From Escherichia coli (lineage in GTDB: Bacteria > Pseudomonadota > Gammaproteobacteria > Enterobacterales > Enterobacteriaceae), in assembly GCF_003790525.1 (NCBI RefSeq), contig NZ_CP033632.1: DNA of 64,000 nt; one strand, given 5' to 3'. The position numbers are program-made. Below, in pieces: positions 23,574-26,500 of the stretch (position 1 is its first letter; the number at the start of each line of letters is the position of its first letter).

Positions 23574-26500
23574 TAAAAACCGGAAATAACGCCAGAAATG
23601 GTGGAAAAAATAGCCTAAATAGGCTGATTCGATGTGTTTGCGGGAAAAAAATCGGCCCAGATCCGCGAAATTTTAATCAGCGAGTCAGCTTGGGAAGAAA
23701 TGACCTGCTTATTCGCACCTTCCCTAAAGAACGTGGAACGAGGAAACTTCCCGGACGAGTTTCAACTTCAAATGCATTATCAGTCATTGTCCCAAATCCG
23801 TCTCCAAATAGACGGCGTTGCAAGAGTGGAGACCCTGATTGATACGAAGAAGATCATGGATAGGCAATAACATTAGGAATGCACGGTAACTACGAATAAT
23901 CGAAACCTCGGTACGTAATAGTTTACCGAGCAAGTTACGCGTTATGTTATCTGATTCTGACATGTCGGATTGTCCTTGAGTCAATACAATAGCACAACTC
24001 TTCTACATGAAATTAAAGTTTGGTTTTTTGAAGTATGAAAAGCTACTTTTGGAATTTTAATACTGCCGATTTGAGTCTTAAAACTAACCATTCAACCATT
24101 CGCCTTACTTGTAACACTTTTTAAACAAACTGACCAGAATTTTATCAAAAAAAACTGAGCTTGCTAACGAACTGTGAAGCGCTTAAAAAAATCGCAAAAC
24201 TTGCACTGTTATCGGCAGAAAGCAGCAATAACCTTAGCGATAAGAGCGAGCTAGCATGAATATTTTTCCGATTGATTAACAATGGCTATTACATAGGGTC
24301 ACTTTTTGCTGAAAAGTGGCCCTATGGAGCCTCTACATAGGGTCACTTCTTTGTGAAAAGTGACCCTATGTAGACAGGACATAGGGTCACTTTTTTAAAA
24401 AGTGGCACTATGCGCAAAAAACCTAGGGTCACTTTTGATTAAAAAGTGGCACTAGATATATGTATAACTTAGTAAGTAAAACAGCACTTTTCAAATCACC
24501 GGATCAGGAATACCCATTGCAGAAAAAGCTACTTTTCTGCCGAACATAAGTACACCCCGCTATGCCGTTCCCGAGCTCATCTGGTGTTATTCACTATCGG
24601 TATGCATCGCACCAACGACACGCCCCTCATAATTCTCAGAAAAAAATCACTGAAAAAAGTCCTGTTTGTGAAAAAAAATAAAAACCACTTCGGTATAGTG
24701 ATTTCACATCAGGAGGTCACATGTCTAATTCGAAACTAATAAAGTCACTTGAATTATCGCGCAGCTTAATGCGTTCACAAATCGAGGCTCTGCGGGAGGA
24801 GGCTGAAGACTTGTGTACAAATTACTGGATCGAGTGGAAAGAACGGAATCATCTGGAGATTAATTTACCCCGGCCTAGCAATACACTAAAACGTGAGTAT
24901 CTGGGTTCGTATGCACCGAAACTAGAATTAATTGGTAATGCGAAAAAAGTCACTATCACCTGGCATAAGTTCAGTCCGTTTAAAACCAGGGCACCCAGCT
25001 ATATGTCGAAACGGGTTTCTGCGATGAAAAACGGAAAATATTCAAAAAGCTGCTTTGTTAATCACGCGTCTTGGGAATATGAAATGATCGAAAAAACGGA
25101 GGGATTACTGGAACCCTACAGAGAATTACTTGAATTCTATCATGCTGCATATATCGAACTGGGACGGAAAATCCGTAAATACTCAAAATATGAGGTGGCA
25201 CAATGACCGACGTATCAATAAATGAAACCGAGCAGAAAACTCCTGATGTAAATGCCCGCACCTCTCAGGCATCTGACAATACCCGAAAAGTCGTGCAAAG
25301 TAAAATGAACTTTACGGCATGGCCACAGTAACCATTAAGCCAGGTATTCCCGATTTTAACCGTTTCCTTACGGCTCGGAATCGTTCCGTAATTAGAGGCT
25401 TTGATGATGTAAGTATTGCTATTTCATCATTATTCAGGACGGTTAATGCGGTAAGGCACCCCGAATTGGGGCAGGCAATTCAGGACTGGTTTAATGAATT
25501 GCACGACGAAAATAATTTAATGAAGGAGAATCTGGAACACCATATCGCCACTATTCACGTTGATGAAAGTGATCCATTCATCAAAATACAATGCGTTTTT
25601 ATAAGCACATCTTTGAAATGAACAACCTTCTGACCCAGATGTACAAATTCAACTCTCTGGGTCAATTACCGGTTAGCGATTACAACGTAATGGCGCACAA
25701 TATTATTCGAAGTCTCAACATGTATATCGAACGGGTTAAGAAAACACTTAACGTATCCCGTCGTGTAAAAGGTGCTTACAGTCCCGATGAGTTTATCGAA
25801 AAGGTAAAACAGTACAAAAGCGTGCAGGCTTATATTGCTGCGGAACTGTCTGGTAAACGCCGCTAAGGATTATTTGATGAATTTCAGGGCGATCTTCTTA
25901 AGTATGCAACGAGTTTTAGGTATCTTCTCCAGACGGGAGAATGATGTAGTTGAGTTAATAAAGCAGGACCCTTCGAGTCTTTCGCCATTTGCTCAGATTG
26001 TAGGGGATCAAAAATACACTGTGCCAGATCACCCGAATCTTGAAGTCCTGAAATTCATTGAATACCCAACCCGACCTGCGGGGATACAAACCTTTAATGA
26101 GCAGTCTATTCTTTCTCTTTATAGAGATAAACGGTAATGACTCCAACTTATTGATAGTGTTTTATGTTCAGATAATGCCCGATGACTTTGTCATGCAGCT
26201 CCACCGATTTTGAGAACGACAGCGACTTCCATCCCAGCCGTGCCAGGTGCTGCCTCAGATTCAGGTTATGCCGCTCAATTCGCTGCGTATATCGCTTGCT
26301 GATTACGTGCAGCTTTCCCTTCAGGCGGGATTCATACAGCGGCCAGCCATCCGTCATCCATATCACCACGTCAAAGGGTGACAGCAGGCTCATAAGACGC
26401 CCCAGCGTCGCCATAGTGCGTTCACCGAATACGTGCGCAACAACCGTCTTCCGGAGCCTGTCATATGCGTAAAACAGCCAGCGCTGGCGCGATTTAGCCC

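Follow-up and report, generated by a model that had tools for sequence, protein, structure and literature searches.

A decayed IncHI transfer-origin region with a phased palindrome array in Escherichia coli

Introduction

What do four tandem palindromes and a few small genes, caught between two insertion sequences (IS) in an Escherichia coli contig (NZ_CP033632.1, assembly GCF_003790525.1), have to do with each other? We analyzed the 64,000-nucleotide stretch that contains them (hereafter the window). An initial annotation, made from the sequence alone, had read them as an uncharacterised module for maintenance, regulation or phage defence. Judged by gene homology and synteny, the locus is the decayed head of the "H operon" of the IncHI Tra1 region, lying between IS5 and IS1, and what looked like an orphan repeat with its operon is an IncHI transfer origin (oriT) in ruins, bounded by insertion sequences. 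The outcome is mainly a correction: the oriT–traH–traI kind of module is already known from IncHI plasmids, and the residual interest lies in the binder of the palindromes, in the AcaB-like protein R0121 and in a 13-bp palindromic box.

Identity of the locus

A megablast search of PLSDB with window positions 24000–26140 returned 1427 records, in 154 of which the best match was ≥ 99% identical. These E. coli plasmids annotate the 161-aa open reading frame (ORF) as mobI, carry one 723-nt gene (240 aa) after it with an ATGA overlap, and annotate a MobH relaxase or TraI-domain gene downstream where IS1 has not cut. Among the intact relatives compared (the IncHI1 plasmids pEQ1 and R27, the IncHI2 plasmid p13E573-HI2 and an IncHI1B Citrobacter plasmid), the gene order is trhG-trhH-trhF-trhY-trhR, an intergenic region of ∼760 bp, mobI, the 240-aa gene, traI and traD. 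The window is collinear with pEQ1 at 83% DNA identity across trhR, the intergenic region, traH and R0121 (83–90% in the module), and pEQ1 and R27 carry the same TraH, R0121 and TrhR proteins. From left to right the window reads IS5, trhR', oriT region, traH/mobI, acaB-like pseudogene, traI' and IS1 (Table 1), so that the divergent arrangement of trhY-trhR and traH(mobI)-240-aa gene-traI is recognisable, with its outer genes cut by IS5 and IS1. The intergenic region aligns with the traH–trhR region of R27, as expected of an IncHI-type (MOBH11) oriT module.

The half-site of the palindromes was found at only one place in the whole 180,461 bp of R27 (108417–108577), the traH–trhR intergenic region, a clone of which was reportedly mobilised by R27 in the work of Lawley et al. 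(2002). The head of the R27 H operon has the same gene order as the window and the same four palindromes, at the same place and with identical half-sites. Unlike in R27, trhR is cut by IS5 in the window, R0121 is frameshifted and carries a deletion, traI is cut after 85 codons, and no coupling protein or pilus genes follow. In R27 nomenclature, traH is R0122 ("relaxosome protein") and is followed by R0121 and traI, and the R operon consists of trhR-trhY (PMC7366339). For MOBH11 relaxases, a preprint names TraH of R27 as the MobI-like factor (bioRxiv 10.1101/2025.04.21.649884), and the Rts1 paper places the R27 oriT directly beside traH (PMC10838148); both cite Lawley et al. (2002). The trhR–traH intergenic region is cited as the site to which the R27 oriT was mapped.

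At the protein level, the 161-aa product matches Pfam PF19456 (MobI) with an E-value of 2.3e-20 and is 82.6% identical to a MobI found on Salmonella and E. coli plasmids of 190–240 kb; IncC MobI matches the IncHI family profile (E 5e-14), and R27 mobI stands at the syntenic position. The NCBIfam HMM library gave no match for the 161-aa protein, so the mobI name that PGAP gives to relatives evidently comes from another rule. On the other side of the intergenic region, trhR, an IncHI transfer activator gene, is transcribed divergently from mobI, and the stretch that matches the window remnant is contained in a 266-aa gene of pEQ1 (L005) at 5956–6756(-).

The gene after mobI is a pseudogene. Three ORFs (25203–25331, 25319–25621 and 25591–25866), counted at first among up to four small genes, are three frames of one 723-nt, 240-aa gene, and the translation of an intact relative holds all three window peptides in order. 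Two lesions spread this one gene over three frames: at 25302 a run of five A has become four (A5 to A4), and at 25579/25580 there is a deletion of 58 bp. Both appear private to the window record. The 58-bp deletion was not found among the best matches listed out of 275 matching records of complete RefSeq E. coli genomes, nor among the matches listed from PLSDB, all of which carry the extra 59 bases. Of the stop/start overlaps described earlier, the ATGA at 25203 is real and kept in relatives, and that at 25618 is a by-product of the frameshift.

The last ORF, from the ATG at 25877, is collinear with the start of a mobH coding sequence in an intact relative (L001 9937–11568) that matches NCBIfam NF041494 (MobH relaxase) with an E-value of 1e-72. 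Homology to traI stops at 26132 and the stop codon of the ORF (26135–26137) lies inside the IS1 end, in keeping with the earlier description of a gene ended by IS1; uninterrupted copies in relatives identify this gene as the MobH relaxase gene traI. Because only 85 codons are kept and the NF041494 match spans residues 69–409 of the relative's 543-aa relaxase, the window has lost almost all of the relaxase domain, and it holds no intact MobH (TraI_2) relaxase. The module cannot act alone, because its surroundings hold neither a relaxase domain nor genes for a coupling protein or pilus. Since oriT and an intact mobI are kept, an IncHI plasmid in the same cell may nevertheless be able to mobilise the host plasmid in trans, which matters for following the spread of resistance plasmids.

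The statement in the initial annotation that no protein belonged to a known family was therefore wrong, as Pfam MobI, the AcaB family (see below) and, via L001, MobH relaxase NF041494 all match. The uncharacterised maintenance or defence module gives way to traH/mobI, an AcaB-like pseudogene and the 5' end of traI, and the chain of small, translationally coupled genes was an artefact of pseudogenisation and unrecognised homology. Clear homology to a characterised system, named in the initial annotation as a finding that would refute its reading, accounts for the operon.

Table 1. Features of the module and its borders in the window
Feature	Position	Strand	Remarks
IS5-family element	∼22528–23719	+	transposase ORF 22596–23576; left border of module
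trhR remnant	23725–23963	-	about the first 80 codons; collinear with pEQ1 (L005) 6517–6756, start-codon region aligned
13-bp box AAAAGCTACTTTT	24038–24050	.	left of array
Four phased palindromes	24292–24326, 24336–24370, 24380–24412, 24423–24455	.	33–35 bp each
Array half-sites	24292–24455		CATAGGGTCACTTTT / AAAAGTG(A/G)C(C/A)CTATG
13-bp box AAAAGCTACTTTT, second copy	24524–24536	.	between array and mobI
traH/mobI	24721–25206	+	intact, 161 aa; oriT-specificity (relaxosome accessory) factor of MOBH plasmids
acaB-like pseudogene	25203–25866	+	R27 R0121 homologue, 240 aa when intact
traI'	25877–26132	+	first 85 codons of MobH-family relaxase gene, truncated by IS1
IS1	26133–26900	-	768 bp; ends read, InsA/InsB ORFs, matches to IS1 copies; right border of module

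Conservation of the palindrome array

The units of the array stand head to tail (period 44, 3.8 copies, 81% matches in Tandem Repeats Finder), with centre-to-centre spacings of 44, 43 and 43 bp. Allowing ≤ 2 mismatches, the half-site TAGGGTCACTTTT occurs eight times in the array and once outside it (a two-mismatch match at 34284), compared with a mean of 1.35 matches in shuffled sequences; 0 of 100 shuffles reached nine. The four tandem units of ∼44 bp that had been described are thus real and far above chance, and so is the description of what follows them accurate, with 265 bp from the array end to the ATG at 24721 and caggagg preceding that ATG. Rfam yielded no RNA element above its gathering score, only two sub-threshold miRNA matches (mir-513 and mir-3136 at 24292–24393, 27–28 bits against gathering scores of 72–86), which we discarded as artefacts of the palindromes. 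A promoter scan of the intergenic region found promoter-like sites to be no commoner than chance, and a full-text literature search with the half-site sequence found no relevant paper.

We aligned the intergenic regions of five lineages and calculated identities between the window and the three that keep all four units, IncHI1A, IncHI1B and IncHI2 (Table 2). The half-sites are strongly and selectively conserved, which upholds the proposal of an array of protein sites.

Table 2. Identity of the window to lineages that keep four palindromes
Lineage	Half-sites	Central spacers	Inter-unit spacers	Flanks
IncHI1B (Citrobacter)	98–100%	88%	87%	81%
IncHI1A (pEQ1)	100%	82%	72%	70–78%
IncHI2	93–95%	56%	54%	50–51%

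The same alignment bears on whether the palindromes work as folded single strands, that is, as hairpins in the transferred strand that serve relaxase recognition or termination next to the nic site, or as initiation or promoter signals in the recipient. Each unit folds to a stable DNA hairpin (191 nt with a minimum free energy of -51.4 kcal/mol; z = -11 relative to shuffled sequences), and a parallel exists in the MOBH2 relaxase TraI of the gonococcal island (GGI), which needs an inverted repeat 3' of nic, with structure counting over sequence (PMC6736028). We nevertheless consider such a role improbable. A count of hairpin pairs on the alignment revealed no compensatory changes in IncHI1A, IncHI1B and IncHI2, the same arm mismatches are kept (pairs 448/470 and 491/515 unpaired in 5/5, pair 412/420 in 4/4), and one nic site does not need four equivalent hairpins at helical-repeat spacing. 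Mismatches that persist without compensation point to a constraint on sequence and not on pairing, which fits protein read-out of duplex DNA.

More distant lineages were sampled through MobI representatives down to 27% identity, giving about twelve lineages that include IncHI1, IncHI1B and IncHI2, and all of these carry the trio of mobI, a 220–274-aa gene and traI. Lineages with trhR/trhY-like divergent genes have 3–5 palindromes of ∼33 bp, 44–57 bp apart and 230–400 bp upstream of mobI; this number and spacing are kept where MobI is 54–32% identical. An inner core, ACTTTT..AAAAGT, is common to these lineages, and the outer bases are lineage-specific (Table 3). One locus (L016) offered weak, hand-read palindrome candidates only. 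No such array was present in three lineages (L023–L025) that have ParM or ParA upstream together with mobI, an acaB-like gene and traI, nor in IncC; all of these carry other repeats. In L023, three 84-bp direct repeats (2457–2676) lie upstream of a ParM-like (ALP_N) gene, within the intergenic region of the presumed oriT, and are probably the parC centromere of that gene.

Table 3. Half-sites of the palindromes by lineage
Lineage or locus	Half-site
Window, R27, IncHI2	TAGGGTCACTTTT
L017	TAGTGTAACTTTT
L015	ATGTTTAACTTTT
L013	CATTAGTACTTTT
L012	CATTGGTATCTTTT
L021	CTCAAACTTTT
L014	CTTGTCGCACTTTT
L022	CTATACCTGAC; arms TATACCTGAC

Taken on this comparative evidence, the array is most likely a lineage-specific protein-recognition element of the IncHI oriT region, within a known kind of module. 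Phased, conserved and with outer bases that differ by lineage, it would be a ready-made specificity determinant for IncHI plasmids. We also considered a general operator of tra promoters and rejected it, the half-site being absent from all other tra regions of R27.

The architecture had suggested a centromere at the outset, and tandem, phased, dyad-symmetric repeats are indeed what a partition site of the sopC or parC type, or a set of replication iterons, would show; sopC is built of ∼43-bp tandem repeats that each contain an inverted repeat. The context makes this explanation very improbable, however. Among the array-bearing IncHI-type lineages fetched, none has a partition or replication gene beside the array; the module is free of rep genes both in the window and in its relatives, and the array is tied to mobI–traI in every lineage. 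In R27, where the motif occurs only at traH–trhR, both par loci (18–25 kb) are ∼85 kb away from it, and all three rep genes are also far and lack it.

Candidate readers of the array

We infer that the palindromes are phased binding sites for dimers of TraH/MobI that build the relaxosome, a reading to which we give a probability of roughly 0.45. Each palindrome would bind one TraH/MobI dimer through two half-sites ∼22 bp (two helical turns) apart, and the spacing of ∼43–44 bp (about four turns) would place all four dimers on the same side of the helix. The phased dimers could then form a nucleoprotein scaffold that marks the cognate oriT and recruits the relaxase TraI through MobI–TraI contacts, and TraI would nick nearby.

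We favour TraH/MobI on account of the analogy with other oriT–mobI pairs, the properties of MobI, a repeated motif in IncC and the survival of array and gene in decayed plasmids. The oriT of IncC, SXT and MGIVchHai6 is found immediately upstream of mobI, and specificity there is set by the oriT–mobI pair (PMC5587640; PMC7449626). Expression of MobI is constitutive and very high, and the protein both self-associates and binds the TraI C-terminal domain (bioRxiv 10.1101/2025.04.21.649884). In the AlphaFold2 model (predicted local distance difference test score, pLDDT, 91.5), window MobI consists of two antiparallel helices of ∼45 residues and a tip that contains a beta-hairpin, and this tip or central beta-rich part is strongly basic in both sequence and model. 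In IncC, a single ∼12-bp motif recurs at least five times in the oriT upstream of mobI and is present in both orientations. Finally, mobI and the array are intact in two decayed plasmids in which the acaB-like gene is broken, that of the window and a Cronobacter plasmid (L006). The latter, Cronobacter sakazakii pCrono684-2, keeps three palindromes (5001–5487) after the loss of precisely one unit of 44 bp; IS1 truncates its acaB-like gene, and its mobI is intact.

The oriT–mobI modules of IncA/C, SXT/R391 and MGIVchHai6 resemble the window in having a homologous MobI and an oriT upstream of mobI, and their specificity comes from the oriT–mobI pair. IncC further shares multiple short repeats in both orientations. 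It differs in that its repeats are direct and inverted, ∼12–14 bp long and abutting mobI, rather than four 33-bp palindromes at 44-bp spacing and 265 bp upstream, and in that mobI and traI are not adjacent and have no acaB-like gene between them. Several phased, dyad-symmetric protein sites within 150–200 bp also make up the sbmA–C sites of F TraM and sopC-type arrays; the window array is like both in architecture only, and homology of sequence or protein was neither tested nor found.

Several observations weigh against TraH/MobI as the reader. We found no published direct binding of DNA by any MobI family member. The MobI model contains no helix-turn-helix or ribbon-helix-helix motif and has no significant neighbour in PDB: the fold search returned prefoldin and V-ATPase-stalk-like topologies only (E > 0.1), and a sequence search of solved structures with MobI gave nothing meaningful. 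Whereas the essential oriT of IncA/C, ∼150 bp long, abuts mobI, the window array lies 265 bp away, and we know of no minimal oriT or nic site for IncHI plasmids. Such arrays were found only in lineages with trhR/trhY-like divergent genes and not in L023–L025, a restriction that would suit a function in regulation no less than one in the relaxosome. An equally local candidate also exists, since the adjacent AcaB-like protein comes from a family that binds DNA sequence-specifically.

That candidate is the 240-aa protein. Its fold match, profile alignment and bridging homologues join the IncHI R0121 family to AcaB, of which it is, at the level of predicted fold and sequence profile, a remote branch. 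The AlphaFold2 model (pLDDT 79, core about 90) matches AcaB (PDB 6N8A/6N8B) in Foldseek with an E-value of 3.6e-5 and a probability of 1.0. We located acaB on the IncC plasmid pAR060302, confirmed it against PDB 6N8B and built an AcaB family alignment; hhalign matched the IncHI 240-aa family to it with 90% probability (E 1.6e-6, 152 columns). The proteins encoded by the second gene in L024 and in L025 match the AcaB and the IncHI profile alike (E 1e-12 to 1e-20). Identity between the IncHI protein and AcaB is only 8–16%, and comparing the single sequence with the profile gave a marginal result. The protein thus shows both the AcaB fold and the AcaB profile homology of DUF1845-like regulators. 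Pfam gave no match for it, TrhR or TrhY, a sequence search of solved structures returned nothing meaningful, and a literature search found no paper linking R0121 to AcaB. The genes differ in setting, as acaB sits next to traN/sfx in IncC and the IncHI gene lies between mobI and traI, and in the window the latter is, unlike acaB, a pseudogene. An AcaB homologue separates mobI from traI in each of the twelve MOBH lineages examined, which is a testable point for IncHI biology.

Could R0121, the AcaB-like protein encoded in the same operon, instead use the palindromes as operator or activator sites between the divergent trhR (R) and traH (H) promoters? The array would then sit in the oriT region yet serve transcription, and R0121 dimers on the four sites would switch on the master activators TrhR/TrhY, in a positive feedback loop like that of AcaB with AcaCD in IncC. 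The homology just described speaks for this possibility. AcaB is described as an activator of the ribbon-helix-helix-like type whose target is the promoter of acaDC, the master activator genes (PMC8373056, citing Hancock et al. 2020). The array does stand between divergent regulator and DNA-processing (Dtr) operons, its restriction to lineages with trhR/trhY-like genes upstream fits such a circuit, and the R27 genes with the strongest induction at the permissive temperature include R0121 and traH (PMC7366339).

A further lead comes from IncC pAR060302 (L019 13936–14095), where a perfect 24-bp palindrome, CAAACTTTCACA|TGTGAAAGTTTG, lies upstream of acr1, whose promoter is a reported target of AcaB activation; two partial copies are found at distances of 81 and 60 bp. 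The arms of the 24-bp palindrome have CAAACTTT in common with the palindromes of L021. The lead is weak, because sharing of an 8-mer is expected by chance.

Regulation by R0121, the main rival reading, nevertheless strikes us as somewhat unlikely. The array is intact and 100% conserved in the window and in the Cronobacter plasmid despite the broken acaB-like gene in both, and the nearest promoter-like hexamers of trhR are > 120 bp from the array and no commoner than chance. Of the genes on this side of oriT, only traH, traI, traG and traJ are reportedly needed for R27 transfer (Lawley et al. 2002), which would make R0121 non-essential and counts against the operator. We therefore retain binding by TraH/MobI as the preferred reading.

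A dispersed 13-bp palindromic box

Besides the array, the intergenic region holds two variant copies of a 13-bp box, one on either side of it (Table 1); AAAAGYTACTTT matches the window at 24038 and 24524 only, with 0 matches expected. All IncHI-like lineages fetched have the box beside mobI; none occurs in 80 kb of an IncC plasmid. Across R27 (L008–L011), the consensus AAAAGTTACTTTT has 25 exact matches and 42 with ≤ 1 mismatch, compared with a shuffle mean of 0.4, and a relaxed 12-mer has 34 matches, about half of them intergenic when judged by eye against the annotation tables. This over-represented, dispersed palindrome offers another testable point for IncHI biology.

The 13-bp box and the array half-sites have the core AAAAGTKAC in common. 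We advance, as a speculative and rather doubtful idea, that R0121 or a partner in the HtdA/TrhR/TrhY circuit reads this core both in the array, which would be a dense switch of four palindromes between trhR and traH, and in the dispersed AAAAGTTACTTTT boxes, as a hitherto unrecognised IncHI regulatory layer. The published account of that circuit reports no motif (PMC7366339). If real, such a layer would link gene expression across the whole plasmid with oriT and the master activators.

Insertion elements and flanking sequence

At the left border, homology to the plasmid p1-H9 (L003) jumps from 12077 to 19521 across window positions 22527/23720, and the IS5 copy stands in place of ∼7.4 kb of that plasmid (L003 12078–19520). 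The segment lost includes an IS30, a trhF-like thioredoxin gene and a 112-aa ORF, and its replacement by IS5 explains why an autotransporter gene now lies beside the oriT remnant. Directly past IS1 on the right, window positions 26903–27211 hold the C-terminal 102 aa only of a serine recombinase/resolvase-like ORF, so that IS1 joins two unrelated truncated genes, traI' on one side and the recombinase fragment on the other. A further IS1 copy (17688–18461) lies next to the autotransporter gene (1171 aa, 18635–22150), which is also present in p1-H9.

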